A DNA stretch of 64,000 bases from an uncultured beta proteobacterium (lineage in GTDB: Bacteria; Pseudomonadota; Gammaproteobacteria; Burkholderiales; SG8-41), in NCBI GenBank assembly GCA_963778865.1, contig CAVZWF010000007.1:70086-134085 (forward strand), written 5' to 3'. The notes under the pieces are model-generated. The model saw nothing but the letters and a program-made list of their open reading frames with translations, had not been told where the DNA came from and ran no database searches. Below, in pieces: positions 1-22,036 of the stretch (its first letter is position 1; each line of letters begins with the position of its first letter). Both the position numbers and the translations under genes were made by a program.

Positions 1-3057
<3,057 letters not shown>

Positions 3058-4492
3058 TCAACTCGAAGACGCCGTGCAGGTACCAGCCGCCGGGCGCTCG
3101 GCGCTCGCGGTAGATCCATAACGTCGCGTGGTCGGGCGTTTGCGCGACGAAGTAATCGCGCTTGACGTCGTCATCGTCCCACCAGCCGGACTCGATGCGC
3201 TCGGGTCCGGCGACGAGCGCCAGCGCATTCTCGCGGTAATGCGGCCGCGCGGCGATTTCCGTGAGCGGCCGCGGCGCGGCGAGCAGCCACAGCGGGCGCG
3301 GGCCGCACGCGGGCGCCGCACTCGCGGTGCCGGGCTGGGTAGTGCGCGACGCGCGCTCGGGACGATGCTCGGCGTGCGCTGCGAGACCGTGCACCGCCTC
3401 CGCGCCCAGCCGCGCGCGCAGGCGCTCGACCAGCTTTTGCCACGTCGCCGTGCGCGCCGGCGCGGTCGGCGAAGAGTTCGCGGTTTTCGTCGCGCGAGCA
3501 CGAGGATGTCGTCCGCTTCGAGGCGCAGCGCGTGCACCGGCGCGGGCAGCGCCAGCGCCGCCAGCCGTTCGCGCACGAGCAGCGCCAGGTGCGCGCCGTC
3601 GCGCGCCGGCGCAACCAGTCCGATTTCGATAGGCGTGGCCGCGCTGCGCTCGTGCAGCAGCGTCAGCGTGAAACGCTGCACGCCGCCGTTGCGCGCCGCG
3701 AGAAAACCCGCGAGCTGATTGATCAGGCGTTTGGCGGCGAACAGCAGCGCTTCGCTGTGCGCGGCCGGCGCGGCGAGTTCGAGTTTGGCGTCGAACCGCG
3801 CGGGCGGCGATGAAAAATTCGCGCGGCGCCGGCAGCCGGCCCAGCGCGCGGTCGACGGTGTCGAGGAGTTCGCCGCCCGCCGCGCCGCGCCACACCGTCG
3901 CGCGGCAGCGCCATGAGATCGCCGACACTACGCACGCCGGCGGCGTGCAGCGTTTGCACGACGCGCGCATCGCAGTCGAGCAGCGTGAGCGGCAGCGCCG
4001 CGACGACGGCTTCGAGCGCGCGTTTGCAGTTGACGATTTTCTGCATGGCGCGCGCGCGCGAGCAGCAGCGCCGCCGTGGCGGTCGGCGCGCACGCCATCG
4101 TCACGGAACAGCCCATGTCATCGAGCCCGCGCTTCAACGCTTGCAGGATGGCGCGGATGCCGCCGAAGAGTTGCAGGCTGCCTTCGATGTCGAGCAGGAG
4201 CGCGCGCGGCGGCGCCAGCGCGACGTTGGGCGTGAACTGGCCGGCCCACGCGGCGAGTGTAGCGAGCGTCGCGGCTTCGGCGCCGGCATCGCGCGACCGG
4301 TAGTTGAGTTGGGGCGACGAGCGCGCACGCCGCCGACAGGCGCATGCCTTGGCGCACGCCCAGCGCGCGCGCCGGCTGATTGCAGACGATCACGTCGGCA
4401 CCGTCGGCGATCGCCCACGGTTCAGTGTGCGCCGAGGCTAACGCAAACGTTTCGAGCGGCAGGCTCGGGAAATCGAGCGCGATCCACAGCAT
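3058..4492 (-). pseudogene. imuB: ImuB, Y-family-polymerase-like subunit of the ImuA-ImuB-DnaE2 mutasome; at least 3 frame changes
   Basis: ATG at 4490-4492 opens MLWIALDFPSLPLETF.. (inside ORF 4118-4765). Further pieces are ORF 3723-4046, ORF 3058-3681 (MQRFTLTLLHERSAATPIEIGLVAP..) and the C-terminal ..GPERIESGWWDDDDVKRDYF..WYLHGVFE piece inside ORF 1877-4093. TGA at 3058-3060 directly abuts the dnaE2 ATG at 3055-3057. Confidence 0.8.
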
Positions 4493-4544
4493 GATGATTT
4501 GACCAGGATTTGCTTGCGCGTGCGGGTGCGACGGCAGGTGAGTG

Positions 4545-5150
4545 CTAAGCAGAATCGGCGCGTTGAGCGCCGCGCCGCGGCGTTTGAGGATGCGCACGGC
4601 AAGCTCGCCGCGCCAGGTTTGCAAGATCGAGCCGCAGCGCCGCGCACGACGTTTCGGCGCGCGCCTGCGGCGGGCGGAACAGCACGGCGAGCACGGGGTT
4701 GCCTTCGGCGGCCAGTTGCAGGCGCCGCAACTCGGGATATTTGATGCGCCCGGCCACGCGAGCACCGCGCCGCAGGCCTGCGAACGCAGCGCCTGTTCGG
4801 TCGCCCACAGCGTTTCGCGCGGCGAGCGGGTGGTGACGATGATGACGTGCGCGAGGTCGATGCCGGCGGCCGCGAGCGCCGGCGCGTACGGCAGATGCGG
4901 CGGCGCGATCCAGGCGAGCGGGCGTTTCTGCGCGGACAGCGCGGCAAGCGCTGCTCCCAGTATGCGCAGTTCGCCGATGCCCGCATGCTGCGGCAGGATT
5001 TCGGTGAGCGCTGCGGTCGGCCAGCCGCCGCCGGGCAGTTCGCGCGTCGAGCGCGGGAAAACCGGTCGGCACGCTCGCGCTCGCCACGCGGCTTAACTGG
5101 TTGCCGCGCCAGATGGCGGGATGAGCGAGTATGGCGGCGAGCGCGTTCAC
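4545..5150 (-). pseudogene. imuA: ImuA (RecA/SulA-like SOS mutagenesis protein); about 3 frame changes, true stop uncertain (about 4500-4550)
   Basis: The N-terminus MNALAAILAHPAIWRGNQL..PTGFPALD is in ORF 4545-5150. The central LPGGGWPTAALTEILPQHAGIGELRIL..LAWIAPPHLPYAPALAAAGIDL.. lies in a second frame. It returns to ..RIKYPELRRLQLAAEGNPVLAVLFRPP.., and the tail ..LAVRILKRRGAALNAPILL is again shifted. The GTG start (5148-5150) overlaps the lexA stop (GTGA). Confidence 0.75.
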
Positions 5151-5747
5151 AGCGTGCCGCTGCGGATCACGCCGACCGCGATGCCCTCGATGGCAAACGG
5201 CGTGCGGCGCAGGTCGACTTCGATGATTTTGAAATCCGGATTCTCGGGCAGCAACTGCACCTGGTTGCCGCGGCGGCGGAAACGCTTGACCGTGACTTCG
5301 TCGTGCAGCCGCGCGACCACGACCTGGCCCGAGCGCGCTTCGTGCGCGCGGTGCACGGCGATGAGATCGCCGTCGAGGATGCCGGCGTCGCGCATGCTCA
5401 AGCCCCGCACCTTCAACAGGTAATCGGCGCGCGGCTTGAAGAGTTGCGGATCGAGCTGAAAATGCGCCTCGATGTTTTCAACGGCCAGGAGCGGGCTGCC
5501 GGCGGCCACGCGCCCGATCAGCGGCAGCCCCAGTGTTTCCGTGAGCCGGATGCCGCGCGAAGCGCCGGCCAGCATCTCGATGGCGCCTTTGCGCTGCGAG
5601 CGTGCGCAGGTGTTCCTCGGCGGCGTTGGGCGAATTGAAACCCATCGCGCGGCAGATGTCGGCGCGCGTGGGCGGAAATCCGGAGTCCGCCATGAACTCG
5701 CGGATCATGCGCAGTATCTCCTGCTGGCGTTTGGTCAGTTCTTCCAT
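5147..5747 (-). pseudogene. lexA: LexA repressor, one apparent 1-nt insertion near 5590
   Basis: ATG at 5745-5747 opens [51 protein letters not shown] (wHTH). After a frame change it continues as (RKGAIE)[21 protein letters not shown] (Ala-Gly cleavage site)..[15 protein letters not shown] (catalytic Ser)..EVTVKRF (Lys) in ORF 5147-5575. Confidence 0.85.
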
Positions 5748-5807
5748 CGCGGCCTTTCTATGCGGTTGAAGCAGCAAGAGGCCGGCGGGAAGCTCCCTTT
5801 CCCTGAG

Positions 5808-5853
5808 CCCATAACATAATGAAACGCGCACACGTGTTTCATTATGTTATGGG
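5808..5853. repeat. Perfect 18-bp inverted repeat with 10-bp spacer, AT-rich, about 60 bp upstream of the lexA ATG
   Basis: CCCATAACATAATGAAAC (5808-5825), gcgcacacgt, GTTTCATTATGTTATGGG (5836-5853). The arms are exact reverse complements. No T-run follows on either strand. Confidence 0.9.
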
Positions 5854-5880
5854 CTCTTGCCGGCCTCCCGTTTCGCCCAC

Positions 5881-6291
5881 TCAATGTGAATAAGCTGCCG
5901 TGTCGGATGCGGCCCTGGCGCCGCGCATATTGGCGGGCGGCTCGATTTTGCCGAGCTTGGCGAGCCGCGCTTCGATCGCGAAACGCGAACGCCGGTGCGC
6001 GGTGGCCAGTTCGAGGATTTTCTTGCCGGCGTCGAAAGCGGCGGCGAGCGCCTTGTCTTCGTCGTCCGACCACGGCTTGCCGGCGTTCGACGGCGCGTTT
6101 TCATTCGTTCGCGGCAGCGCGCGGCTTGGCGCGGGCGCGGGCGGCGCATCGAGCGCGCGCAGCGCTACGAACAAAGCGCGCACGGTGTCGGGATGCTGGT
6201 ACGGACTGTCGGCGCCGAACGCCTTGCCGGTTTGCGGATCGAGGCCGTCGGCGAGTTGCTGGATGATTTTCAGTGCGTCTGCTTTTTCCAT
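5881..6291 (-). CDS. Uncharacterised 136-aa protein with a C-terminal SANT/Myb-like helix motif; LexA-box controlled
   Basis: ATG at 6289-6291 is preceded by AGGAGA. The protein reads MEKADALKIIQQLADGLDPQTGKAF..P/A-rich linker..GKPWSDDEDKALAAAFDAGKKILELATAHRRSRFAIEARLAKLG. It is the first gene of the same-strand run leading into lexA-imuA-imuB-dnaE2. I recognise no named family. Confidence 0.6.
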   Translation of the reverse strand: MEKADALKIIQQLADGLDPQTGKAFGADSPYQHPDTVRALFVALRALDAPPAPAPSRALPRTNENAPSNAGKPWSDDEDKALAAAFDAGKKILELATAHRRSRFAIEARLAKLGKIEPPANMRGARAASDTAAYSH

Positions 6292-6346
6292 GCGGGTCTC
6301 CTGTGGTTGTGCCCTTTTACGTGGCGCGTCCCGCGGGCCGGGAACG

Positions 6347-6368
6347 ATACTGTAATTATATACAGTAT
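6347..6368. promoter_or_regulatory. Canonical LexA (SOS) box, CTGT-N8-ACAG
   Basis: ATACTGTAATTATATACAGTAT, with CTGT at 6350-6353 and ACAG at 6362-6365. It is fully palindromic. On the minus strand the spacer contains TATAAT. It sits 56 bp upstream of the ATG at 6291. Confidence 0.85.
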
Positions 6369-6569
6369 ACGTGCAATAACGCGCCCACTGCAAGAGAGGT
6401 TTACAGACGATGAGCGGGCGGGTTTCGCCGGCGGCCGGACTGCTTCTACAATCGCCGGTGGTTGCGCGGCCGCCGTACTACCACCGCTGGTGGAATCGGA
6501 CTCGCCGGCGGCGGCCGGCGGGGTGTAATGGCATAATCGGCACCCTATACGGGAGGCCATCTCAAAAAT

Positions 6570-6612
6570 CCCTTCACCCCAGCCCTCCCCACTAGCGCGG
6601 GGCGAGGGAGTA
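6570..6612 (+). repeat. REP-like palindromic element, family A (CCCTC(TC)CCC..GGGG(A/C)GAGGG hairpin)
   Basis: CCCTTCACCCCAGCCCTCCCCACTAGCGCGGGGCGAGGGAGTAT is near-identical to 34541-34590. It is related to 24241-24283, 34457-34500 and the two copies inside prmC. Confidence 0.8.
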
Positions 6613-6634
6613 TTTTTCTAATCAGGAGGAGCGC

Positions 6635-7648
6635 ATGAGCATTCGCAGCCGTTTAGCCGCAGCAGTCGCGACGATCTTGTTTGCCGCCGCAACCGCCGGC
6701 GTGCGCGCCGAGGTCAGCGAAGTCAGCGTCGCGCAACAATATGGCGTGAGCTTTCTGCCGCTGATGTGGATGGAGCACAACAAGCTGATCGAAAAGCACG
6801 CCAAGGCGCAGGGGCTCGGCGAACTCAAGGTCAACTGGGCCAAGCTCGCGGGTCCCGCTGCGATGAACGACGCGCTGCTGTCGGGGTCGCTGCATTTCAG
6901 CTCGGTCGGCGCGCCGTCGCTGATCACGCTGTGGGGCAAGACCAAGGGCAACATCGGCGTCATGGGCGTGTCGGCGCTGACCACGTATCCGCTGTATCTC
7001 AACGTGCGCAATCCCAATGTGAAATCGATCAGGGATTTCACCGACAAGGACAAGATCGCGGTGCCCGCGGTCAAGGTGTCGACGCAGGCGATCATGCTGC
7101 AGATGGCGGCCGAGAAAGCGTTCGGCGAAGGCAATCAGTTCAAGCTCGATCCGTTCACCGTCACGCTGTCGCATCCCGACGGCATGGCGGCGCTGATGTC
7201 GAACACCGGCGGCGTCGACGCGCACTTCACGACTTCGCCGTTCCACGAGCAGGAGATGAAAATTCCGGGCGTGCGCACGCTGACGACGTCGTACGAAATC
7301 CTCGGCGGGCGCGCGACCGCGCTGGTGGTCGTCACGACGACGAAGTTCCGCGAGGCGAATCCGAAAACCTACAACGCATTTTTCGCCGCGTTGAAGGAAG
7401 CGATCGACGCGATCAACCGCGACAAGAAAGTCGCCGCGCAGCGCTATCTCGAATGGGCGAACGACAAAAAGTCGACGCTCGACGAAGTCTATGCGGCGAT
7501 CTCGAACCCCGATTACGCGTTCACGCTGATGCCGGAAAAAGTGTTCAAGACCGCCGAGTTCATGGCCAAGATCGGCTCGGTCAAGGACAAGCCGGGTTCG
7601 TGGAAGGACATGTTCTTCCCCGAAATTCACAACCTGCCGGGCAATTAA
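6635..7648 (+). CDS. NMT1/THI5-like (NitT/TauT-family) periplasmic substrate-binding protein, no cognate permease or ATPase adjacent
   Basis: Intact 337-aa ORF with signal peptide MSIRSRLAAAVATILFAAATAGVRA. The SBP-like body reads ..VAQQYGVSFLPLMWMEHNKLIEKHAK..IRDFTDKDKIAVPAVKVSTQAIMLQMAA... Confidence 0.7.
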   Translation: MSIRSRLAAAVATILFAAATAGVRAEVSEVSVAQQYGVSFLPLMWMEHNKLIEKHAKAQGLGELKVNWAKLAGPAAMNDALLSGSLHFSSVGAPSLITLWGKTKGNIGVMGVSALTTYPLYLNVRNPNVKSIRDFTDKDKIAVPAVKVSTQAIMLQMAAEKAFGEGNQFKLDPFTVTLSHPDGMAALMSNTGGVDAHFTTSPFHEQEMKIPGVRTLTTSYEILGGRATALVVVTTTKFREANPKTYNAFFAALKEAIDAINRDKKVAAQRYLEWANDKKSTLDEVYAAISNPDYAFTLMPEKVFKTAEFMAKIGSVKDKPGSWKDMFFPEIHNLPGN

Positions 7649-7663
7649 GAGTTGCATAACACG

Positions 7664-9019
7664 ATGCCGCGCAAGAAAACGGAGTCGCTGCGCATCGGCT
7701 CCGGCGCCGGCTTTGCCGGCGACCGCCTGGAGCCGGCGGTAATTCTCGCCGAGCGCGGCGGACTGCAGTACCTGGGGCTCGAATGTCTCGCCGAGCGCAC
7801 GATCGCGCTCGCCCAGTTGAGGAAGCTGAAGGAGCCGGCGGAAGGCTACGACGTGCTGCTCGCGCGCCGCATGGAATTGCTGCTGCCGGTGATCAAGAAA
7901 AAGCGCGTGCGCCTGATCACCAACATGGGCGCCGCCAATCCGGTCGCGGCGGCGGACCTGATCGTCGAAATCGCCAAGCGCCGCAAGCTCGATATCAAAG
8001 TCGCGGCGGTGACCGGCGACGACGTGTTGAAACTGATGCGGCCCACCGATCGCGTGCTCGAAACCGGCGGGCCGCTGTCGGCCTACAAATGGCTGGTGTC
8101 CGCCAACGCGTATCTGGGCGTCGATGCGCTGTTGCCCGCGCTCGCGACCGGCGCCGACATCATCATTACCGGCCGCGTCGCCGACCCGTCGCTGTTTTTG
8201 GCACCCGCCGCTTACGAGTATGGCTGGCAGCCCGACGATCTCGACCGCATGGCGCGCGGCACCGTGATGGGCCATCTGCTCGAATGCGCGGGCCAGATCA
8301 CCGGCGGCTACTGCGCCGATCCCGGCCGCAAGGACATTCCGGATTTCGCGCATATCGGGTTTCCCTACGCGGACGTCGACGCCGACGGCAACTGTATCAT
8401 CGGCAAACCCGCCGACACCGGCGGCGCGATCAACCTGATTACCGCGAAAGAACAGTTGTTGTACGAGGTGACCGATCCGCGCGCGTACGTGACGCCCGAC
8501 ATCACCGCGGATTTCACCACGGTGCAATTGCGGCAGGCGGGCGCGAATCGCGTCGCCGTGTCGGGCGCGACCGGCAAACCACGCTCGCCGACGCTCAAGG
8601 TCAGCATCGGTTATCACGCGGGTTATGTCGGCGAAGGCGAAATCAGCTACGCGGGGGCCAATGCGTTAAAGCGCGCCGAACTGGCTGGCGAAGTCGTGAA
8701 GGAGCGCTTGAAGGGCGCGTTCACGGAAATGCGCGTCGATTACATCGGCAGCACCTCGTTGCACGGCAAGGCGTACGACGAGGCCGCGCGCCCGTATGAA
8801 GTGCGCCTGCGCGTCGCGGCGCGCGCGGCCACGCGCGAGAAAGCAGCGCTCGTCGGCGAGGAGGTCGAGGCGCTGTGGACGAACGGGCCGGGCGGCGGCG
8901 GCGGCGCGCGCAAGTACGTGCACGAGCAGGTCGGCGTGATATCCGGTTTAATCGCGCGCGAGAAAATCAGAACCGAAGTAACGGTGCGGGAGTGGCGGCG
9001 TGAAAAAGAAACTGTATGA
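7664..9019 (+). CDS. AtuA-like protein (DUF1446, acyclic terpene utilisation family)
   Basis: Intact ORF (the track starts at TTG 7652; ATG at 7664 is more likely). It reads MPRKKTESLRIGSGAGFAGDRLEPAVILAERGGLQYLGLECLAERTIA..ITGRVADPSLFLAPAAYEYGW..GHLLECAGQITGGY, typical of DUF1446. Confidence 0.7.
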   Translation: MPRKKTESLRIGSGAGFAGDRLEPAVILAERGGLQYLGLECLAERTIALAQLRKLKEPAEGYDVLLARRMELLLPVIKKKRVRLITNMGAANPVAAADLIVEIAKRRKLDIKVAAVTGDDVLKLMRPTDRVLETGGPLSAYKWLVSANAYLGVDALLPALATGADIIITGRVADPSLFLAPAAYEYGWQPDDLDRMARGTVMGHLLECAGQITGGYCADPGRKDIPDFAHIGFPYADVDADGNCIIGKPADTGGAINLITAKEQLLYEVTDPRAYVTPDITADFTTVQLRQAGANRVAVSGATGKPRSPTLKVSIGYHAGYVGEGEISYAGANALKRAELAGEVVKERLKGAFTEMRVDYIGSTSLHGKAYDEAARPYEVRLRVAARAATREKAALVGEEVEALWTNGPGGGGGARKYVHEQVGVISGLIAREKIRTEVTVREWRREKETV

Positions 9020-9311
9020 CCTCGCGCATTGCCGCGCCGGCGACAAGGGCAATACATCGATCCTGTCGCTGATCGCGTATCGCGACGAGGACTACGCGGT
9101 GCTGTGCGGCAAGGTCACCGCGCACGCGGTCAAGCGCCATCTCGCGCACATCATCAAAGGCCAAGTCACGCGCCATGAAGTGCCGAACGTCGGCGCATTG
9201 CAATTCGTGTGCGAGCAGGCGCTGGGCGGCGGCGTCACCACGTCGCTTGCGATGGACGCGCACGGCAAGAGCCTTTCGTACGCGCTGCTTGAAATGGAAA
9301 TCGAGGTTTAG
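9000..9311 (+). CDS. Small AtuA-partner protein (DUF4387-like)
   Basis: 103-aa ORF whose GTG start overlaps the end of the DUF1446 gene. It reads MKKKLYDLAHCRAGDKGNTSILSLIAY..GALQFVCEQALGGGVTTSLAMDAHGKS. This is the usual companion of DUF1446. Confidence 0.6.
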   Translation: MKKKLYDLAHCRAGDKGNTSILSLIAYRDEDYAVLCGKVTAHAVKRHLAHIIKGQVTRHEVPNVGALQFVCEQALGGGVTTSLAMDAHGKSLSYALLEMEIEV

Positions 9312-9514
9312 GAAATATCCGATCAAACCCGCAACCGTTCGCCCTGATGTATGGAAGGGTGAACGGTGTCCCTCGGTAAATGCGGTAATCGTGTCCTTCC
9401 ATACCTCAGGACATGCTTCTATACATCGGCACGAACGGGCTTGATCAGCGTTTCCTTAGGGCACGAAATTCCGCGTTGCCGCGGTGTCGCCGGCAAGTTT
9501 GTCGCGCGCGGACG

Positions 9515-12025
9515 TTACGCGGCCGTAGTGGCGATCGCCGGTTGCGCTTCGACCATTTCAGCAAACTCGCCCGGTGCCACGGCCTTGCTGAAATAAAAGC
9601 CCTGGATTTCGCCGCAGGCGTTATCGCGCAGAAAGTCGGCCTGCTCCGCCGTTTCCACGCCCTGGGCCACGACGGTCAGGCTCAGCGTCTTTCCCATCGC
9701 GATAATGGCCTTGGCCAGATTCCGGTTTTCGGGGACGCTGGCGAAGTCGCGAATCAGCGAACGATCGATCTTGATCGTGTCGAGGGGGAATTGCCTGAGC
9801 GTGGCGAGCGACGCATAGCCGATGCCGAAGTCGTCGATGGCGATGCGGATGCCCAGTTTTCTCAGCGCGTTCAGAATGCGCAGGGATCTTTCGATGTCGC
9901 GCATCAGCACGCTTTCCGTGATTTCCAGTTCCAGCAGATGGGCATCCATGCCGGTTTCCGCGAGTATTGCCTTCAAATCGGGCAGCAGCTTTTCATCGGA
10001 AAACTGGCGCGCGGTCAGATTGACTGACATGCTCATGCGCGGCAGGCCTTGTTTCTGCCACGCCGCGTTTTGCTCGCAGGCGGTTCTCAGCACCCACTTG
10101 CCGATCGCCACGGTAAAGCCGAGTTCCTCGGCGATCGGGATGAAACGCATCGGCGCCACCGTCCCGAGCGCCGGATTCTGCCAGCGCAGCAACGCTTCCA
10201 TGCCGCTGATCCGGCCGCTGCCGCTTTCGCGCTTGCATTGGTAGAAAAGCTGGAACTCGTCGCGCTCCAGCGCGTTGCGCAGGTTCGACTCCAGGCTCAG
10301 GCGTTCGAGCGAGCGGGTGCTCAGGTTCTCGGTATAGTACTGGTAGTTGTTCTTGCCCTCCGCCTTCGCCTGATACATCGCGATATCCGCGTTTTTTGTC
10401 AGCGTCTGCTCATCCAGGCCGTCGCGCGGGTAGATGCTGATGCCGATGCTGCCCGTGACGCGGAATTCACGATTGCGCAGGACGAATGTCCGGGCGATCG
10501 CGATGAGAATTTTCTGCGCCACGGCCGACACGAATTCGTCCGCTTCGACTTCCGGCAGCAGGGCGACGAACTCGTCGCCACCGAGCCGTGCGACGGTGTC
10601 GCTGTCGCGCAGACAAGCCTTGAGCCGCGCCGCGACTTCCCGCAATAACTGGTCGCCGGCATCGTGCCCGAGCGAGTCGTTGACGTATTTGAAGCCGTCG
10701 AGGTCGATAAACAGCACCGCCACCTGTCTTTTGTAGCGGCGCGCGAGGGTGATGTTCTGGTCCAGTAGCTTGCTGAACAGGCTGCGATTGGGCAGTGTGG
10801 TGAGTTCGTCGTGATACGCGATGTATTCGACGCGTTCGGCATGCGCCATCTGGGCCTCGACGACACGCTGGCGGGTTGCCGCAAGCCGCAGGCTCAAGCT
10901 GCCCAGCAGCGCGACTACCAGAATCAGCAGCAGGCTCACGGCGGACGCGCGCCACACGTACGTGCGCATGTCGCTGCGCGCGGTGGCCAATTGCTCGTCC
11001 GCCGACAAGCCGACGATCACGGCAAGCGGGAAACCGTAGAGCTTGCGCGCGACGGTGTAACGCGGCACGTAGTCCCACGGGTTGGTTGCGAGCGCTGCCT
11101 CGCGTGCCGCTTCGCCCCGCGCAGACACCACCGCTGCGTAATCAACCCGGTCGCCGGCAGACGCGGTTTCTCCGCTGCGTCTCGCGCGGAATATGCCGTC
11201 GGTGCCGAGTATGCCGAGTACGCCGTGGGCGCCCAATTTCGAGGCTTCATAGCCGCCGACGAAATAGGCCGCGGCGACCGCGACAGTCACTACGCCGGAT
11301 AGCGTCGCGCCCGCCGCCGTGAGCCTGCGGCTGAAACGCAGCTCCCACGTTCCGGAGCCCGGATTTTGCCGCGGACGGCCGATCGAAAGTTCGTCGGTCT
11401 GACCCGCGCTCTGGAAGTATTCCTGATCGGCGACATTTTTGAGTTCGGACGGGCGGGTGCTGGCCACGATATTTCCCGCCCTGTCCGCAATGCTGATGAC
11501 GAAAAACTGAGCCGGCGGCAAGAGCTCCCGTGCCTTCAGTTCTTGCATTGCGAAATTCTTGCCCTTGAGTTCGTAGGCATATTTGACGATTTTCAGGGTC
11601 TGATCGATTTCGCGCAGCGCGCGTATGACTTGCGCCTCGTAAGTCTCAGCCACTTCGCGGCTCGTCACCGCCGCGGTGTTCTCGGCTGCGGTGCGTTCGA
11701 CATTGATGAGGTTTACGGTCGTGCCCCAGATCGCCCCCAGGCCGAGAATGGCGATGGCCGGAAACAGGATGTGCGGTTCCGTGGCGCGGCTAAACCAGCG
11801 CCTCAGCGCGGCGACCGGCTGAATCCAAGCCCGGGTCAGGCGCACGGTGACGGCAATCCCGTGTCGAAGTTTTTGACCTGCATCGGCGGATGCGCCAGGT
11901 TGCTCGGCCCGGAGACGCCGGCGCCTGCGTGGTCGATGGCGGTTACGCCCATCGCGTGTGTCGACCGCAGGTTGGCGACGCTGAGCGTGACGTCTTTCAT
12001 GATCGGGCCTTTGATTTTCCCCCAC
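9515..12025 (-). CDS. Membrane-bound dCache sensor / GGDEF / EAL c-di-GMP turnover protein; N-terminal start uncertain
   Basis: 836-aa ORF. It contains TM, periplasmic Cache-like region and TM (..LLLILVVALLGSL). The GGDEF domain reads YHDELTTLPNR..LFIDLDGFKYVNDSLGHDAGD..RLGGDEFVALL. The EAL domain reads GMEALLRW..EITES..DDFGIGYASL. An out-of-frame ATG at 11998-12000 (MKDVTLSV..) could be the real start if an indel lies near 11860. Confidence 0.85.
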   Translation of the reverse strand: MGENQRPDHERRHAQRRQPAVDTRDGRNRHRPRRRRRLRAEQPGASADAGQKLRHGIAVTVRLTRAWIQPVAALRRWFSRATEPHILFPAIAILGLGAIWGTTVNLINVERTAAENTAAVTSREVAETYEAQVIRALREIDQTLKIVKYAYELKGKNFAMQELKARELLPPAQFFVISIADRAGNIVASTRPSELKNVADQEYFQSAGQTDELSIGRPRQNPGSGTWELRFSRRLTAAGATLSGVVTVAVAAAYFVGGYEASKLGAHGVLGILGTDGIFRARRSGETASAGDRVDYAAVVSARGEAAREAALATNPWDYVPRYTVARKLYGFPLAVIVGLSADEQLATARSDMRTYVWRASAVSLLLILVVALLGSLSLRLAATRQRVVEAQMAHAERVEYIAYHDELTTLPNRSLFSKLLDQNITLARRYKRQVAVLFIDLDGFKYVNDSLGHDAGDQLLREVAARLKACLRDSDTVARLGGDEFVALLPEVEADEFVSAVAQKILIAIARTFVLRNREFRVTGSIGISIYPRDGLDEQTLTKNADIAMYQAKAEGKNNYQYYTENLSTRSLERLSLESNLRNALERDEFQLFYQCKRESGSGRISGMEALLRWQNPALGTVAPMRFIPIAEELGFTVAIGKWVLRTACEQNAAWQKQGLPRMSMSVNLTARQFSDEKLLPDLKAILAETGMDAHLLELEITESVLMRDIERSLRILNALRKLGIRIAIDDFGIGYASLATLRQFPLDTIKIDRSLIRDFASVPENRNLAKAIIAMGKTLSLTVVAQGVETAEQADFLRDNACGEIQGFYFSKAVAPGEFAEMVEAQPAIATTAA

Positions 12026-12135
12026 TCTAGTCCGGCGGCCGCCTGCGCGTCAATGACGATTTTCGCCCGGCTTCGGCGTTCACGCCGCGCGTGTGCGCGA
12101 TTCGCGCCGGGCTTGCGGTATGCCTGTTCACGAAA

Positions 12136-13063
12136 TTATTTTTCCTCGGCTTTCAGTATCGCGAAGGCCTGCTGCAGCACTTTCTCGATGCGAGCCTTTT
12201 CCTTGGCCACGCTCTCGTCGGTCCATTCCCAGATGCCGCGCTTCGTTTTCATGCCGATGTGGCCTTGCGCGATCATGTCTTTCAGAAACTGCGGCGGCTC
12301 CTTCTCGCTGTGCAGGCTCGGATACAGCGAGGTGCCGGCGTACAGATTGGTGTCCCAGCCCGACATTTCCTTTTGCGTCATCGGGCCGCAGGCGAGAAAG
12401 CGAAATCCGAAACCGTAGCGCACCGCGGTATCGATGCCTTCCGGCGACACCACGCCGTCGGCGACGAGGTACAGCGCCTCGCGCATCATCGCGTGCTGCA
12501 AACGGTTGCCGATAAAGCCGGGGATGTCCTTGTTGACGCGCACCGGCGCCTTGCCGAGCGCCTTCTGCTCGACTTCGAGCCGGTCGCCCACCGCCTTGTC
12601 GGTGAAATCGGCCTGTATGATTTCGACCAGCGGCACGAGGTGGGCCGGCATGAAGTAGTGCAGGCCGACCACGCGCGAACGCGTTTTCAGATGCCCGCCG
12701 ATGTCGCCGATCGGAAACGTCGACGTATTGCTCGCGAGCGGAATGTCGGGCCGCGCGAGCGTTTCGAGCCGCGAAAAAAGTTTTTGCTTGAGCGCGAGAT
12801 CCTCGGTCGCCGCTTCGATGACGAGATCGACTTCCTGCCACGGTATGGCATTCGAGATCGGCGTACGTTTTGACGAGTGCCGCGGCGCTGTCCGGCGCGC
12901 CGAGTTTCTCGAGGCCGGCAGTCAGCCGCGCGGGCAGCGAGCCGCGCGTTTTTTCCGACGGGCTCATCACGTGCACGTTCCAGTTGCCGGCGGCGAAAAT
13001 GATGGCGATGTCGCCGCCCATGATGCCGCCGCCGATGATGGCGACGCCCTGTTGCTTGGCCAT
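12136..13063 (-). pseudogene. 3-hydroxyacyl-CoA (3-hydroxybutyryl-CoA) dehydrogenase, one frame change near 12860
   Basis: N-terminus MAKQQGVAIIGGGIMGGDIAIIFAAGNWNVHVM.. (Rossmann fold, ATG 13061-13063, GGAG RBS). This is followed in another frame by ..IPWQEVDLVIEAATEDLALKQKLF..VVGLHYFMPAHLVPLVEII..IGNRLQHAMMREA.. (ORF 12136-12672). Confidence 0.8.
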
Positions 13064-13125
13064 GCAGGTTGCTCCAGAAGACAAAATCGGATTGCGGCGC
13101 CTGCGCGTGGCGCCGCGCGGCGGAC

Positions 13126-13960
13126 CTATTTGGCCGGCGCCGGGGGTTTGGCGCTCGTGCGCGTCGCGCTCCACGCGCCGGCGTTCGCGCCCTTGACCGT
13201 GCCTTCGATCGTCGCACCGTTGACGCGGCCCGTGTACTCGGAGTTGCCCGCGCTGAAGCTCAACTGGTCGCCGCGCAGCCGGCCGTTGCGCACGGCCAGC
13301 GTGTTGCCGCCGGCGCGCAACGTGCCGCTGACCATCTGGAAGGCCTGCGTCAACGCGAGTTCGCCCTGCGCGAATTGCCAGGTGCCTTCGACCTTGGCCG
13401 GCACTATCCACATGTACGCGGTGCGTCCGTCGAACGACTCGGTCTGGTCCGCCGTCCATTCGTCCATCGTGAATGCATGCGACACGATGCGCGTGCCGGG
13501 CTTCAAGTCGAGGATTTTCGGGCGCAGCTTCAGGTTGATGTTGGGCAGCAGGTACATGGTGATCACGGTGGCCTGCGAAAAATCGCTTTCGAAGAGATCG
13601 GCCTTCATGAAATTGGCTTTGCCGGCAACGCCTTCCTTGTCGGCGTTGCGCTTCGAGAGTTCGACCATGTCCGGGTTGTATTCGATGCCGAGCGCGCGCG
13701 CGCCGCGCTTGGCCGCGGCGATCACGGTGCGGCCGTCGCCCGAGCCCAGGTCGATCACGTAATCGGCGGACGTGACTTTCGTCATGTCGAGCATCTTGTC
13801 GATGAGTCCCTGCGGCGTCGGCACCCAGATGACATCCTTGCCTTCCTGGCCGACCTGCGGCTCGAATTCCTTCTTGGCGGGCTGCGCGCAGACGCCCGCG
13901 GCGACGCAGGCACAGCAGAAATGTTAACCACGAACGACGCAGAACTTGTGCAGCCGGCAT
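13126..13960 (-). pseudogene. Class I SAM-dependent methyltransferase with N-terminal signal/anchor, paralog 2; one frame change near 13895
   Basis: ATG at 13958-13960 follows GGGAGAA. MPAAQVLRRSWLTFLLCL.. shifts into ..VAAGVCAQPAKKEFEPQVGQEGKDVIWVPTPQGLIDKMLDM..VIDLGSGDGRTVIAAAKRGA..LKPGTRIVSHAF.. plus a C-terminal domain ..YTGRVNGATIEGTV.. (ORF 13126-13824). Confidence 0.7.
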
Positions 13961-14009
13961 GCCGATTCTCCCTTGATCAGATTTTCGAATGGCGTGTGCG
14001 AGCGCCGGG

Positions 14010-14849
14010 TCAGCGGCGCGTGGCGCTCCACTTGGCCGTGTTGCCGCCCGTGTTGACGGTGCCCTCGATGGTGTTGCCGTTGACGCGCCCCGTGTAATTG
14101 GCGCCGCCCGCGCTGAAGCTGAACTGGTCGGCGCGCAGCTTGGCGTTCGCAATCGGCAGCGCAGTTGGCGCCGGACTTCAGCGTGCCCTGCACCATCTGG
14201 AACTCCTGTTTCAGCGTCAGATCGCCCTGCGCGGAATGCCACGTGCCGGCGACCTTGGCGGGCACGATCCACAGGTGCGCGGTGCAATAGTAGCTGCAGC
14301 CCGCGCTCTCCTCGACCGTCGCGGTCTCGTCGTCCTTCCACTCGCCCATGGTGAATGTATTGGACACGATGCGCGTGCCGGGCTTCAGGTCGAGGATTTT
14401 CGGGCGCAGCTTCAAATTGATGTCGGGCAGCAGGAACATCGTAATCACGGTGGCGTGCGAGAAATCGGTTTCGAACAAATCCGCTTTTACGAAAGTCGCC
14501 TTGTCGGTCACACCCGCCTTGGCCGCGTTGCGCCTTCGACAGTTCGACCATGTCGGGATTGTATTCGATGCCGGTCGAGCGCGCGCCGCGCTTGGCGGCG
14601 GTGATCACGGTGCGGCCGTCGCCCGAGCCGAGATCCATGTGAATATCGCTCGGCGGTCGAGCTTGCGCCATGTCGAGCATCTTGTCGACCAGCGCCTGCG
14701 AGGTCGGCACCCACACGACGTCCTTGCCCGGCTGGCCCGAGTACGGCTCGAACGGTTTTTCGGCGGGTTGTGCGAGCGCAACCGTCGCGGTCAACAGCAG
14801 TGCAACGGCGGCGAGCCGTGAGACGTAAATTGTCGAAGTGCGTTCATCA
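14010..14849 (-). pseudogene. Class I SAM-dependent methyltransferase with N-terminal signal/anchor, paralog 1; at least 3 frame changes
   Basis: ATGATG at 14844-14849 follows GGGAGAA. The pieces are ..RLAAVALLLTATVALAQPAEKPFEPYSGQPGKDVVWVPTSQALVDKMLDM..MDLGSGDGRTVITAAKRGA.. and ORF 13924-14511 (..VTDKATFVKADLFETDF..LKPGTRIVSNTF..). The tail ..ALPIANAKLRADQFSFSAGGANYTGRVNGNTIEGTV..WSATRR ends at TGA 14010-14012. Confidence 0.65.
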
Positions 14850-14888
14850 TCGATTCTCCCTTTAGTTGAAACAGGTGTTGCCTGAATT

Positions 14889-15849
14889 TTATTCCGGCCG
14901 CGCGCCCGATGCCCTGACCACCGGCGCCCAGCGCGCGATTTCGGCCTTGATATGCGCGCCGAATTCCTCGGGCGTGTTGCCGACCGGTACCGTGCCATCG
15001 GCGGCGAGCCGCTCCCTGACCTCGGGCTGGCGCAGCGCCCTGACTATCTCGGCGTTGAGCTTCAACACGATGTCGCGCGGGGTCGCCGCAGGCGCCAGTA
15101 TCCCATACCATTGGGTTGCTTCGTAGCCCGCCACGCCCGCTTCGATGATGGTCGGCACGTCCGGCAGCACGGCGAGGCGCTTGGCGGTGCCCACCGCGAT
15201 GCAGGCGCAGCTTTTCCGACTTGATATGCGGCATCAGCGCCGCCATGCCGGTGATCATCAGCGACGTTTGGCCCGCGATCAGATCGTAGATGGCCGGCCC
15301 GGTGCCTTTGTACGGAATATGCGTCAGTTTCACCTTGGCGAGCAACTCGAAATACACCATGGCGAGGTGGGCGGCGCTGCCGCTGCCGCCCGAGCCGTAC
15401 AAGAGCTGCCCCGGCTTGGCGCGCGCGATCGCGAGAACGTCCCTGACCGAACGCACCGGCAGCGCCGGATGCACGACCATGCCGTTGGGGACCATCGCCG
15501 AGCAGCGTGATCGGCGCAAAGTCCTTGATCGCGTCGTACGGCAACTTCGGATACAGCGTCGGGTTGGCGCCGAACGTGCCGATATGCCCCATCACCATCG
15601 TGTAGCCGTCGGGCGCCGCGCGCGCGGCCAGCTCGACGCCTATCGTGCCGCCGGCGCCGCCGCGGTTCTCGACGATGACCTGCTGGCCCCACGCTTCGGT
15701 CAGCTTTGCGCGCGATGATGCGCGCGAGCAGATCCGTGCTGCCGCCGGGCGGAAACGGCGCGATCAGCCGGATCGGCTTGGACGGATAAGTTTGCGCGGC
15801 CGACGTGCCGGTGGCGCACGATCAGGGTCGCGGCAATCGTTATCGCCAT
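14889..15849 (-). pseudogene. Bug/TctC-family tripartite tricarboxylate receptor 1; several frame changes
   Basis: The pieces are MAITIAATLIV.., ..[44 protein letters not shown].., ORF 15062-15598 (MVMGHIGTFGANPTLYPKLPYDAIKDFAPI), ORF 14791-15519 (..VVHPALPVRSVRDVLAIARAKPGQLLYGSGGSGSAAHLAM..HIPYKGTGPAIYDLIAGQ) and ORF 14889-15194 (..LPDVPTIIEAGVAGYEATQWYGILAPAATP..). Confidence 0.75.
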
Positions 15850-15886
15850 GATGTCGCGGATCGCCTTTTTGTGCGCTACGCGTCGC

Positions 15887-15921
15887 CCTTCACCGTTCAC
15901 CGCTTACCGCTTACGACTCAC
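15887..15921 (-). repeat. Five tandem heptads; on the minus (coding) strand GTGAGTC GTAAGCG GTAAGCG GTGAACG GTGAAGG
   Basis: The plus strand reads ccttcac cgttcac cgcttac cgcttac gactcac. The array starts at the likely true stop codon (TGA, 15918-15920) of the CoA-transferase gene. TGA/TAA recur every 7 nt. Confidence 0.8.
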
Positions 15922-15927
15922 GTTTTC

Positions 15928-17133
15928 TCAAGCCTGCCATCCACCGCAATGCCGGCGGTCACCATCGCGGCGATCGCCGGCTTCGTCGTAGCCCGCTTCG
16001 CGCAGCACCTCGACCGTGTGCTGGCCGACTTTCGGCGCCGGCATGAAGTCGCTGCGCGAACCGGCGGTGGATTTGTTCGGCAGCGCCATGTCGATCATGC
16101 GGCCTTCGGTCGGATGATCGAACTTGCGGAAGAAACCGACGTCCTTGAGATGCGGGTCCTCCATCAGCGATTCCAGCGTGTGGTATTGCATCGCCGGCAC
16201 ATCCATCTTGTCGAATATCGCGATCCATTCGGCGTTGGTTTTCTGCTTGAGTCCTTCCGCGCGCGCGGCGAAATATTCCGGCACGTGCTTGAAGCGCGCC
16301 GCGACCGAACAGAAGCGCGGATCGGTTTTGTACTCGGGCTTGCCGATCGCGTCGAACACCGCGAAGGCCTGCGCGTCGGTGTTCGCCGACACGCAGATAT
16401 AGCCGTCCTTGGTCGGCACCGGGCGCGCGCCCGGATCGAAGAGGCGCGGGTCGCCGGTGGTGCCGATCGGCGGATCGAACGTCTGGTGGTACATGTGCTC
16501 TTCGAGCACGAAGCGCGCGATGTTCTCGAACATCGGCACTTCGATAGCCTGGCCTTCGCCGGTGCGCTCGCGGTGATAGAGCGCCATCAGCACCATTTGC
16601 GTGGCGATGAGGCCCGTGGTCTTGTCGGCCATCACGATGGGCACGAAGCGCGGCTCGCCGGTCGCGCGATGATGCAGCGCTGCGATGCCGCCCGCGCCCT
16701 GGATGATGGAGTCGTAGGCGGGCTTGTTGCGATAGCGCCCGGTCTGGCCGAAGCCGACGATGCCGCAGTAGATGATTTTCGGATTGATCGCCTTGACGTC
16801 TTCGTAGGAAAGCTTCAGCCGCGCCATCGCCGACGGGCGCACGTTCCACAGTAGGATGTCCGCGGTCGCGAGCAGCTTCGTCAGCGCGTCGTAGGCCGCC
16901 GGTTTTTTGAGATCGATCGCGAGCGAGCGCTTGTTGCGGTTCAGGTGCAGAAACTTCGGCGACATGTTGGGCGTGATCGCGCGGCCCGCGAGGTTGCGCA
17001 CGATGTCGCCCGACGGCGGCTCGACCTTGATCACGTCGGCGCCGTAGTCGGCGAGCATCAGCGTGACCATGGGCCCGACCACGACCGACGTCATGTCGAT
17101 GACGCGCACGCCGGCGAGAGGACCGCCGGCCAT
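15928..17133 (-). CDS. Family III (CaiB/BaiF) CoA-transferase 1; probable 1-nt indel near 15975 affecting only the last ~20 aa
   Basis: 401-aa ORF reading MAGGPLAGVRVIDMTSVVVGPMVTLMLADYGADVIKVEPPSGD..SIIQGAGGIAALHH... The as-given tail is ..YDEAGDRRDGDRRHCGGWQA. The alternative frame gives the family-typical ..YDEAAIAAMVTAGIAVDGRLEKT, ending at 15918. Confidence 0.85.
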   Translation of the reverse strand: MAGGPLAGVRVIDMTSVVVGPMVTLMLADYGADVIKVEPPSGDIVRNLAGRAITPNMSPKFLHLNRNKRSLAIDLKKPAAYDALTKLLATADILLWNVRPSAMARLKLSYEDVKAINPKIIYCGIVGFGQTGRYRNKPAYDSIIQGAGGIAALHHRATGEPRFVPIVMADKTTGLIATQMVLMALYHRERTGEGQAIEVPMFENIARFVLEEHMYHQTFDPPIGTTGDPRLFDPGARPVPTKDGYICVSANTDAQAFAVFDAIGKPEYKTDPRFCSVAARFKHVPEYFAARAEGLKQKTNAEWIAIFDKMDVPAMQYHTLESLMEDPHLKDVGFFRKFDHPTEGRMIDMALPNKSTAGSRSDFMPAPKVGQHTVEVLREAGYDEAGDRRDGDRRHCGGWQA

Positions 17134-17167
17134 TACTGCACCACGCCGGCAAGCACTTCGCCGGCCA

Positions 17168-18019: not shown

Positions 18020-18166
18020 AGTTGCGGTCTCCTTGCGGCGGGCGTGATCATGAATATGGGAGGCGTGATTCTAGCAATGTTTCCACGCTGCCCGTTGTCC
18101 TTCAAGCCGCGGGCTTGAAAACAATGGCGCGTTACGGTTCGCGGTTGATGCCGGCGGACTTTAAGC

Positions 18167-19136: not shown

Positions 19137-19149
19137 ATCCGACCGCCTT

Positions 19150-20466: not shown

Positions 20467-20500
20467 AGTGTTATTCCGTGAATATTATGAAGCAGGCCGC

Positions 20501-21867: not shown

Positions 21868-21916
21868 AGTTTTTGAAGCAATATAAAAGATCCAACCCTT
21901 TAAACCGAAAGGCAAG

Positions 21917-22019
21917 CCACAGAGGGCACAGAGGGCACAGAGGAAAATCAAGCTCTTCTCTTATAGAGCTGAAGTTTGGATTTTGGCATTTCTCTGCGTT
22001 CATCGGTGTCCATCTGCGG
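21917..22019. repeat. MITE-like intergenic element, family B: ~31-bp imperfect terminal inverted repeats built from 9-10-nt periodic units, flanking a ~41-bp core
   Basis: The left arm is CCACAGAGGGCACAGAGGGCACAGAGGAAAA (21917-21947). The right arm is TTTCTCTGCGTTCATCGGTGTCCATCTGCGG (21989-22019). The core contains AGCTCT..AGAGCT. A related copy lies at 47494-47522. Confidence 0.75.
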
Positions 22020-22036
22020 TCACATACGTTTTTGAA

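Follow-up and report, generated by a model that had tools for sequence, protein, structure and literature searches.

In bacteria without Pol V, damage-induced mutagenesis relies mainly on the ImuA-ImuB-DnaE2 system, which plays a part in the evolution of drug resistance. To our knowledge, this cassette has been treated as being composed of these three proteins plus LexA. In its known form, e.g., in Pseudomonas putida, the genes lexA, imuA, imuB and dnaE2 stand in this order under a LexA box, and the repressor, being encoded within the operon, autoregulates the cassette (PMC3765255, PMC3323433). The operon that we describe here shares these four genes, their order and the LexA box, but it differs by a fifth conserved gene, hereafter gene X, which either heads the operon or is placed between lexA and imuA. 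No X-like gene is mentioned in the cassette literature that we searched, and gene X is itself undescribed there; the LexA-regulated hypA and hypB of Burkholderia (PMC3323433) cannot be matched to it without locus tags.

In the window, i.e., the whole stretch of 64 kb that was analysed, gene X is followed by lexA, imuA, imuB and dnaE2, all on the minus strand. The features of the locus, in the direction of transcription, are:

6364-6393, minus strand: putative sigma-70 promoter, read from the sequence (-35 TTGCAG at 6393-6388, 18-nt spacer, -10 TATACT at 6369-6364)
6348-6367, no strand assigned: LexA (SOS) box, TACTGTAATTATATACAGTA on the forward strand and TACTGTATATAATTACAGTA on the coding (minus) strand
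6302-6297, minus strand: AGGAGA, the ribosome-binding site, 5 nt upstream of the ATG, read from the sequence
5881-6291, stop included, minus strand: gene X, encoding an uncharacterised two-domain protein of 136 aa (ORF, homologues, AlphaFold)
5774-5867, minus strand: GC-rich hairpin in the X-lexA spacer, outer stem 5774-5786 / 5859-5867 (inverted repeats)
5805-5856, minus strand: 52-nt palindrome inside this hairpin (inverted repeats)
5147-5747, minus strand: lexA (three-frame translation, tblastn)
4509-5150, minus strand: imuA, frame-broken in the window (tblastn with the ImuA of the orthologous locus L001)
3065-4492, minus strand: imuB, an inactive Y-family polymerase, with at least four frame breaks in the window (tblastn)
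1-3021, minus strand: dnaE2, an error-prone polymerase, with several frame breaks and running off the window start (tblastn)

A number of arguments indicate, at the level of sequence, that the X reading frame, intact from its ATG (6291-6289) to its TGA (5883-5881), is a real gene. First, it has 1,608 homologues that align end to end. Second, the codon differences with its orthologue in L001 are synonymous in 27 cases and non-synonymous in 23. Third, its GC content at third codon positions (0.76) exceeds that at second positions (0.53). The family comprises 2,749 clusters at 50% identity. Pfam and NCBIfam models gave no match to X and nothing relevant among 36 diverse family members, and for DinI, RecX, SulA, YebG, UmuD and PsiB neither X nor the 36 relatives had a match. 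These searches rule out that X is a named SOS protein or a member of a curated family, in agreement with the earlier note, made from the DNA alone, which had recognised in it none of sulA, dinI, yebG and umuD. An anti-phage defence protein was also rejected, as PADLOC returned zero families for X and one stray match among the 36 members.

The same note had singled out the box as the only canonical one in the window, with TATAAT embedded on the coding strand and a 136-aa ORF with a strong ribosome-binding site 56 bp downstream, and all of this is borne out. The motif CTGT-N8-ACAG, the standard beta/gamma-proteobacterial type, occurs once in the 64 kb. The bare eight-base core is not significant alone, since it is expected by chance 0.31 times per 64 kb and has at least one match in 27 of 100 shuffles; the 20-mer consensus with up to three mismatches is matched in none of the 100. 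The coding-strand box TACTGTATATAATTACAGTA has a single mismatch to TACTGTATATAAATACAGTA, and with a position weight matrix (PWM) derived from orthologous boxes it scores 35.5, versus 4.9 for the second-best site of the window. TATAAT lies at 6360-6355, the box ends 56 nt before the ATG, and the sequence (c)aGGAGa is kept ahead of the start codon in the orthologues.

As read from the sequence, the near-consensus LexA box overlaps the putative -10 element of the one candidate promoter recognised for these genes. In this lineage the better-spaced -10 would be TATACT, which extends into the left end of the box; for relatives without an 8-nt insertion, it is the box-internal TATAAT. The layout of cTTGCA, 16-18 nt, and TATACT or TATAAT is kept in relatives. 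A strict sigma-70 scan found no promoter because the hexamers of the window match only 8 of 12 positions, and TTGCAG-18-TATACT is thus a putative promoter falling below the scan threshold. Scans of the window for CTGT-N8-ACAG and with the PWM revealed no second box before lexA. With no box of its own, lexA must be autoregulated through the X promoter. The leader RNA matched no Rfam family, with only chance matches to miRNA hairpins far under the gathering scores.

The identity of the downstream genes is clearest in the orthologues, where they are intact. The orthologue of lexA is recognised as LexA (TIGR00498, 241 bits), the L001 ImuA matches NF033429 at 221 bits (cut-off 150), the imuB orthologue carries the Pfam domain IMS, and that of dnaE2 scores 1,516 bits against NF004225, "error-prone DNA polymerase". 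In the window, the frame of lexA is broken by a 1-nt insertion near 5597, seen as one extra base in the alignment with three relatives, such that tblastn finds residues 1-50 and residues 51-199 in different frames; the Ala-Gly cleavage site can still be read in the sequence, as can the Ser and Lys motifs. The GTG start of imuA overlaps the lexA stop. Together, lexA, imuA, imuB and dnaE2 accumulate at least 13 frame breaks, and given these, the operon of the window may be decayed or mis-assembled. The hairpin of the X-lexA spacer is kept in six relatives, without compensatory changes or covariation, and its 52-nt palindrome is found only in the window and in one other locus (L013). Rfam assigned no family to the spacer, the only matches being chance ones to miRNA hairpins far under the gathering scores. 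A canonical terminator was discarded because no U-run follows the hairpin in the window and a coding-strand terminator scan was empty there. The hairpin could nevertheless reduce read-through in this sublineage.

Comparison across genomes strongly supports, from gene order and sequence, that this arrangement is shared by dozens of species. Gene X directly adjoins lexA in 41 of 80 species-level loci, with the order X-lexA in 31 and lexA-X-imuA in 10, and in most loci of these two types (clades A and B) the best PWM site is at the head of the operon. Of 92 loci, 40 have a perfect CTGT-N8-ACAG, almost always a single one per locus of ~10 kb and just upstream of the X operon, and the layout of box, putative promoter and ribosome-binding site is common to the window and the orthologues. 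Ten loci have X-lexA spacers of 0-20 nt. Among the 27 loci with at least 4.5 kb of downstream sequence, 24 carry imuA, and 22 have the full set of three mutasome genes (e.g., L090). X is found paired with lexA and error-prone polymerase genes in dozens of uncultured bacteria from soil and water. The proposal that X is the first gene of an SOS operon, or a new member of the LexA regulon, receives strong support from the adjacency to lexA in two gene orders, the box at the operon head and the short spacers, and the homologues, far from never lying near SOS boxes or SOS genes, as the earlier note had considered they might, adjoin lexA in half of the loci.

The AlphaFold model of X obtained with a diverse alignment has a pLDDT of 88; one made with close homologues only reached 68 and was a poor model with uninformative structure matches. 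The better model agrees with the organisation previously read from the sequence, i.e., an N-terminal helical module, a P/A-rich linker, and a C-terminal domain, whose helices fall within residues 76-112. The two domains are:

6148-6291, minus strand: N-terminal domain, aa 1-48, helix/beta-hairpin/helix (AlphaFold pLDDT 93-97)
5944-6084, minus strand: C-terminal Myb/SANT/GcrA-like helix-turn-helix (HTH), aa 70-116, including the NAGKPW arm before it (AlphaFold and weak matches)

The N-terminal domain is acidic (mean net charge -2.7), follows the motif LAxGxDPxTGExFxxDSPYQxPDxVRALF, and has G16, P19, R38 and A39 as invariant residues. It also exists as stand-alone proteins of 44-88 aa, and these were all that a profile search with this domain retrieved, without new architectures. 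Profile searches for relatives in the PDB gave only spurious fragments of P450 BM3. Mimicry of the RecA N-terminus (a helix followed by a strand) was rejected, with an hhalign probability of 0.8% for the domain profile against the N-terminus of Escherichia coli RecA, and no match to DUF4113. The linker is predicted to be disordered and is basic and P/A-rich.

The C-terminal domain is modelled as three helices (76-87, 92-99 and 103-112; pLDDT 95-98), with G71, W74, G89, R101, R109 and L110 invariant, and a basic turn and third helix of mean charge +3.8. The family profile matches B-Myb, c-Myb and the Mos1 HTH at E-values of 0.003-0.06 (0.012-0.04 for B-Myb and c-Myb). Foldseek on the model, a check that the earlier note had suggested, found Tc3, Myb-like and SANT domains with a best E-value of 0.015, and family members match Pfam GcrA, HTH_58, Myb and Tc3 weakly, those with a single repeat remaining under the gathering thresholds. 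The profile and fold matches are all to HTH DNA-binding domains, including also sigma region 4 and the Cbp1 repeat-binding protein (2lvs), and none is individually significant. Together they point to a three-helix HTH of the Myb/SANT/GcrA/homeodomain-like type, an assignment that holds at the level of fold and superfamily.

At that level, the resemblance to a Myb/SANT repeat first noticed in the sequence stands in the profile and Foldseek results; it does not extend to the criteria that define Myb. Both X and Myb/SANT (PF00249) have a three-helix bundle in which the first helix is acidic (W-S/T-x-E-E-D) and the third is basic. However, X has no match to PF00249, which is matched by 4 of the 36 members at E-values of at least 0.018, under the gathering threshold, and of the three spaced tryptophans of Myb only the first is kept (W74), the later hydrophobic-core positions being occupied by F86 and L110. 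X is moreover bacterial and fused to an unrelated N-terminal domain, and the Myb-like and SANT matches of Foldseek include viral proteins.

GcrA, the cell-cycle regulator of Caulobacter (PF07750), offers another comparison. Like X, it is a small protein of two modules with a homeodomain-like HTH and a disordered linker, and the two share the HTH pattern W-x2-E...L...G....(L/I)A...R(S/T)..A(I/V)..R(L)..LG. The HTH is C-terminal in X and N-terminal in GcrA. The C-terminal domain of GcrA binds sigma-70; X lacks it and ends shortly after the HTH. In line with this, the matches of the family to PF07750 cover only positions 3-47 of the 155 of the profile. Among 36 single-repeat members, 3 match at E-values of at least 3e-4, below the cut-off of 26.9 bits. 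Family members with two to seven tandem copies of the HTH exist, and one with seven (P0249) reaches 91.9 bits by summed repeats. As for the small proteins of the SOS response (DinI, RecX, SulA, YebG, UmuD and PsiB), they resemble X in being LexA-controlled and made early, some of them being encoded beside lexA or recA, but they have no sequence or profile similarity to it and the HTH fold of X differs from theirs.

We favour, with a probability of about 60%, the reading in which X is a genuine member of the LexA regulon, promoter-proximal in the X-lexA-imuA-imuB-dnaE2 operon, and acts as a damage-induced DNA-binding regulator or adaptor that tunes the SOS response. Its induction by DNA damage is what the box predicts. 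By established SOS logic, which we extend to this operon, LexA would occlude the X promoter, DNA damage would lead to RecA-stimulated self-cleavage of LexA, and X, new LexA and the ImuA-ImuB-DnaE2 mutasome would then be made from one transcript. The regulatory or adaptor step is suggested by the fold, the charge, the domain fusions and the distribution of the family: X would be soluble and bind DNA through its three-helix HTH, with its basic N-terminal arm and basic third helix, and the acidic 48-residue N-terminal domain, on its flexible linker, would contact a partner or self-associate. X would be a second-tier factor made with LexA, as opposed to a core subunit, catalytic or structural, of the polymerase. 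It probably represents a fifth part of the SOS mutagenesis system that has gone unrecognised. A conserved, probably co-transcribed DNA-binding protein in many environmental Burkholderiales suggests additional control or targeting of a kind not seen in model organisms. Co-regulation with the SOS response also gives a first functional handle on a family of thousands of members without a Pfam model, which takes in paralogues on plasmids and in housekeeping contexts, as well as a small N-terminal domain without recognisable relatives.

An alternative that we regard as possible, if unlikely, makes X a subunit of the mutasome itself, in which the HTH would anchor the complex on DNA and the N-terminal domain would bind ImuA, ImuB, DnaE2 or the clamp. 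It is favoured by the fact that both gene orders keep X within the cassette, one of them with X directly between lexA and imuA, by the high frequency of imuA in loci with enough sequence, and by the presence of two complete X-containing cassettes in one MAG (L011 and L013). Yet some X-lexA pairs have no imuA, imuB or dnaE2 within 5 kb (L012, L041 and L072), stand-alone clade-A copies of X keep the box (L017 and L092), and many family members have no mutasome nearby. The well-studied ImuA-ImuB-DnaE2 systems are, in addition, described without an X-like protein (PMC12926913, PMC6511836), and X has no motif resembling the RecA N-terminus.

That X is tightly kept in the cassette, in either gene order, would suit a partner specific to the mutasome or to LexA just as well as the regulator that we favour. 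A more specific proposal, which we find doubtful, is that X is a dedicated and so far unrecognised fifth component of the cassette, physically coupling the mutasome or LexA to particular DNA sites or to RNA polymerase. If this were true, damage-induced mutagenesis would be directed or gated instead of genome-wide, the acidic N-terminal domain being a docking module and the Myb/GcrA-like HTH a DNA reader.

It is quite improbable that X modulates the SOS switch as a partner of LexA or RecA, be it as a co-repressor or timer that resets repression or as a modulator of the RecA filament in the manner of DinI, RecX or PsiB. Here one argument is that no gene, the polymerase genes included, neighbours X as tightly and persistently as lexA, as shown by its adjacency in the 41 loci and by the three loci without the mutasome. 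Distant homologues on conjugative plasmids, among small genes near replication and partition regions, and in one case near an SOS-response-associated peptidase, could be taken in the same sense, but they are only ~40% identical and their contexts are uninformative. X has no similarity to DinI, RecX, PsiB or SulA, and its fold favours DNA binding over RecA mimicry.

We give very little credit to the idea that X is a passenger, i.e., a generic small DNA-binding gene, possibly derived from a plasmid or phage, that came to lie between the SOS promoter and lexA with no role in DNA damage. The family does occur in unrelated contexts: besides the plasmids and the phage relatives of the C-terminal domain, a sister clade of X (33-39 loci) has a housekeeping context, without a box and beside an RlmL-type methyltransferase, which means that the core activity of the family is not SOS-specific. 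Against this, the copies linked to the cassette lie outside the housekeeping clade and form two groups, one for each gene order; they are conserved down to ~45% identity, and each keeps its place in the operon, which argues for long-term selection for co-expression.

SulA, YneA, DivS and ChiZ are encoded beside lexA in other bacteria, and X, a small SOS-boxed gene adjoining lexA in a locus where no sulA-like gene apart from imuA was found, could be their functional analogue as the SOS cell-division inhibitor of this lineage, but this is highly improbable for a soluble, HTH-containing protein with no transmembrane segment, LysM domain or SulA fold, and an apparently unboxed sister clade would be odd for a division poison.

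Other members of the family lend further support to the reading of X as a DNA-binding regulator. Fusions of X-family proteins involve an RNA polymerase alpha-CTD-like domain, a DksA/TraR zinc finger and HTH_40, and the phage relatives of the C-terminal domain belong to a PHROG whose annotation is transcriptional regulator.

The window encodes the known SOS mutagenesis cassette, lexA-imuA-imuB-dnaE2, together with one extra conserved gene, X, which encodes an uncharacterised 136-aa protein and defines a five-gene variant of this cassette. The earlier note had proposed that X heads an SOS operon or is a new member of the LexA regulon, and both the box at the operon head and the lexA-linked loci of other genomes support this. 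The locus comprises the following features:

6393-6388, minus strand: putative -35 hexamer TTGCAG
6369-6364, minus strand: putative -10 hexamer TATACT, 18 nt downstream of TTGCAG, overlapping the left arm of the LexA box
6367-6348, minus strand: LexA box, TACTGTATATAATTACAGTA
6360-6355, minus strand: TATAAT within the box
6302-6297, minus strand: ribosome-binding site AGGAGA of X
6291 (ATG) to 5883-5881 (TGA), minus strand: X, 136 aa, open frame throughout
5774-5867, minus strand: GC-rich hairpin between X and lexA, conserved in the window's sublineage
5805-5856: near-perfect 52-nt palindrome (24-nt arms, 4-nt loop) inside the hairpin loop
5747-5147, minus strand: lexA, following X
from 5150, minus strand: imuA, its GTG start overlapping the lexA stop
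after imuA, minus strand: imuB
after imuB, minus strand: dnaE2, running off the window start

Judged from its sequence, X is a genuine gene. The open frame below the box, with its ribosome-binding site, is present as described earlier, GC3 (0.76) exceeds GC2 (0.53) in the pattern expected for a coding frame in a high-GC genome, and the codon differences from the orthologue in a close relative (locus L001) comprise 27 synonymous and 23 non-synonymous ones. A protein collection clustered at 90% identity contains 1,608 homologues (E ≤ 0.001), all unnamed or 'hypothetical', and a profile search extends the family to 2,749 clusters at 50% identity, 1,048 of them at E ≤ 1e-10. The linkage of X to the SOS response provides a first context for this large unannotated family. 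Four close homologues (P0008, P0320, P0326, P0390) carry the JGI label 'LmbE family N-acetylglucosaminyl deacetylase', which is unsupported by sequence or profile searches and is probably an annotation error.

The motif CTGT-N8-ACAG occurs once in the 64-kb window, in the box at 6348-6367, which reaches 35.5 bits with a weight matrix derived from the sites of orthologous loci, the next-best site in the window reaching 4.9; its description as the only canonical box, with TATAAT embedded on the coding strand, thus holds. The bare core is not rare, with at least one match in 27 of 100 dinucleotide-preserving shuffles, and the full 20-mer with up to three mismatches to the classical consensus had no match in 100 shuffles. 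Such an AT-rich palindrome is conspicuous because the window has 64.5% G+C. No second LexA-like site emerged from the core search or the weight matrix, either in the X-lexA interval or in the rest of the window. Hence, the autoregulation described for cassette-borne LexA proteins (summarised in PMC3765255, PMC3323433) would, if it occurs here, have to run through the promoter of X. Since a strict sigma-70 scan reported no promoter, the assignment of this putative promoter rests on sequence and conservation. Just upstream of the -35 hexamer (6394-6410), the window shares a conserved motif, TGTAAACC, with the loci L001, L005, L008, and L010 of its sublineage, and locus L013 has the variant TGTACACC at the corresponding position. 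The motif could be an UP-like element, the site of a second regulator, or the mere result of close relatedness.

The four cassette genes are intact in L001, where LexA matches TIGR00498 (241 bits), ImuA matches NF033429 (221 bits, cut-off 150), DnaE2 matches the error-prone DNA polymerase model NF004225 (1,516 bits), and ImuB was identified through Pfam IMS. The Ala-Gly cleavage site and the Ser and Lys motifs of LexA are readable in the window's own lexA, which has a frame break caused by a single-base insertion near 5597, not in a homopolymer. Relative to intact orthologues, imuA, imuB, and dnaE2 hold at least 12 further breaks, i.e., at least 13 with that of lexA. The other flank of X is intact over 5.7 kb (6291-12025: an ABC-type binding protein, AtuA, and GGDEF-EAL), and frames are broken again at 12100-23000, in a 3-hydroxyacyl-CoA dehydrogenase (near 12850), a methyltransferase, and TctC paralogues. 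The breaks at 1-5750 and 12100-23000 are either assembly indel errors or decaying genes.

The association between X and lexA recurs across genomes. A scan with one genome per species gave 213 relatives, and among the best 80 loci X lies immediately upstream of lexA in 31 and between lexA and imuA in 10 (nine by automatic rule, plus L020); the remaining 39, 14 of them limited by contig ends, have no lexA within reach. Where at least 4.5 kb follow, lexA-linked loci encode imuA in 24 of 27 cases and imuA, imuB, and dnaE2 together in 22. In most lexA-linked loci the best LexA-matrix site closely precedes the leading gene of the operon, which is X in the X-lexA order and lexA in the lexA-X order, and a perfect CTGT-N8-ACAG is present in 40 of 92 fetched loci, almost always once per ~10-kb locus and at the operon head. 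The homologues are thus repeatedly found beside SOS genes and boxes, which clearly contradicts the refuting case named in the earlier note, homologues that never occur near either, and spacers of 0-20 nt between X and lexA in ten loci fit their co-transcription. A neighbour-joining tree of X proteins separates an X-lexA group that includes the window, a lexA-X-imuA group, and a clade without LexA box (L040, L044, L049, L060, and others). The inspected loci of this last clade show a conserved housekeeping context, in which a RlmL/THUMP-type methyltransferase gene is followed by X and then by convergent TauE, pilU/pilT, yggS, and proC. The SOS link is therefore a trait of particular clades and not of the whole family. 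Some stand-alone copies from the window's clade retain the box (L017, L092).

Almost all carriers of X are uncultured Burkholderiales known as MAGs from groundwater and soil, which may be why the gene has been overlooked. Systematic neighbourhood surveys list accessory families such as SRAP and ImuB-C (PMC3765255, PMC6511836, PMC12926913), with no X-like family in these three; a survey of the beta-proteobacterial LexA regulon mentions two unnamed hypothetical genes (PMC3323433). X is apparently an undescribed, conserved gene of the LexA regulon. Some Burkholderiales-type X contigs (L006, L009, L045, L059, L066) have been assigned to unrelated taxa (uncultured Streptomyces, Chitinophaga pinensis, Enterobacteriaceae, Salimicrobium halophilum), probably through bin contamination or mislabelling. 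One MAG (CAWDSF01, isolate MFD00392.bin.2.342) has two complete X-lexA-imuA-imuB-dnaE2 cassettes on different contigs (L011, L013), whose X proteins share 73% and 89% identity with that of L001; either the cassette was duplicated or the bin is mixed. In L090, an Rce1-like (CPBP) protease gene lies between imuB and dnaE2 on the opposite strand (8106-8879).

X has no match among the Pfam, NCBIfam, and PADLOC models, in line with the earlier failure to recognise a named SOS gene. An AlphaFold model from a diverse 36-sequence alignment is confident (mean pLDDT 88) and reproduces the layout read from the sequence, a helical N-terminal module, a linker, and a Myb/SANT-like C-terminal domain:

aa 1-48: N-terminal domain, with helix 3-14, a short beta-hairpin around the invariant G16-x2-P19-x2-G22, and helix 34-48 with the invariant R38-A39
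aa 49-69: low-confidence linker
helices 76-87, 92-99, and 103-112: C-terminal three-helix bundle

The C-domain is preceded by a conserved NAGKPW arm and followed by a poorly conserved tail. Its invariant residues are G71, W74, G89, R101, R109, and L110, and its first helix is acidic (W-S-x-E-E-D). Mean charge is +3.8 in the turn and third helix, +2.4 in the linker, and -2.7 in the N-domain. The family profile has weak matches to an HTH protein of Sulfolobus that binds CRISPR repeats (2lvs, E 1.6e-4), to the HTH of the Mos1 transposase (E 0.003), and to B-Myb/c-Myb (E 0.012-0.04); single members weakly match Pfam GcrA, HTH_58, Myb, Tc3, and sigma-70 region 4, and a seven-repeat member reaches 91.9 bits on GcrA through summed repeats. 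Foldseek, a check proposed earlier, returned for the C-domain only small HTH domains, none at E < 0.001: Tc3 (rmsd 1.1 Å over 43 columns), the DosR and RcsB C-domains, and viral Myb-like, SANT, and GcrA-annotated proteins. Together, these weak matches identify the C-domain as a homeodomain-like HTH of the Myb/SANT/GcrA kind. The single Myb/SANT repeat proposed earlier thus stands as a three-helix fold of that kind, and not as membership, since the domain falls outside the Myb, SANT, and GcrA families by their own criteria. The N-domain has no detectable relative in the PDB, and a RecA-NT-like motif was rejected by comparison with RecA-NT. Stand-alone versions of 44-88 aa (P0271-P0315), some on contigs up to 8 Mb, argue that it is an independent folding unit.

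Across the family, one N-domain is followed by one to seven HTH copies (about seven in the 668-aa P0249), and other members are fused to an RNA polymerase alpha-CTD-like domain (N-terminal, P0220), a DksA/TraR zinc finger (C-terminal, P0237), or HTH_40 (P0199). Phage relatives of the C-domain belong to PHROG 18209 (unknown function) and PHROG 323 (annotated transcriptional regulator). Homologues of ~40% identity are found on conjugative or large plasmids of Burkholderia, Ralstonia, and Paraburkholderia (L085, B. multivorans pBMUL01; L086, R. solanacearum plasmid; L089, P. dioscoreae pI), in arrays of small hypothetical genes near the replication and partition genes trfA and parAB. In pI, a RES-Xre toxin-antitoxin pair precedes the homologue, and an SOS-response-associated peptidase gene is ~1 kb away from it. 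These architectures, fusions, and contexts point to a binding role related to nucleic acids or transcription, and none of them points to enzymatic activity.

The regulated-operon part of the resulting mechanism has good support: when LexA occupies the box at 6348-6367, it should block the -10 region, and DNA damage, through RecA-stimulated LexA cleavage, should allow X, lexA, and the mutasome genes to be transcribed together. From this computational evidence, we infer that X is a damage-induced DNA-binding regulator or adaptor, whose HTH would bind DNA through its basic arm and helix 3 and whose acidic N-domain would be the site of partner contact or self-association. Alternatively, X could modulate LexA or RecA, and the three loci where X and lexA persist as a pair without polymerase genes (L012, L041, L072) favour a connection with LexA, or with no more than the SOS promoter. 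X could also be an accessory or targeting subunit of the mutasome, and the same loci argue mildly against a strictly mutasome-specific role. An SOS division inhibitor and a passenger gene are the other rivals to a regulator or adaptor.

In the window's sublineage, the X-lexA spacer measures 95-138 nt and holds the conserved hairpin, which has no U-tract and no covariation. The palindrome at 5805-5856 is single-copy in the window and has no Rfam match. A similar insert lies at the same place in L013 (about 40-50 nt in the two loci) and is absent there from L001, L008, L010, and L011; it could represent a small palindromic insertion element.
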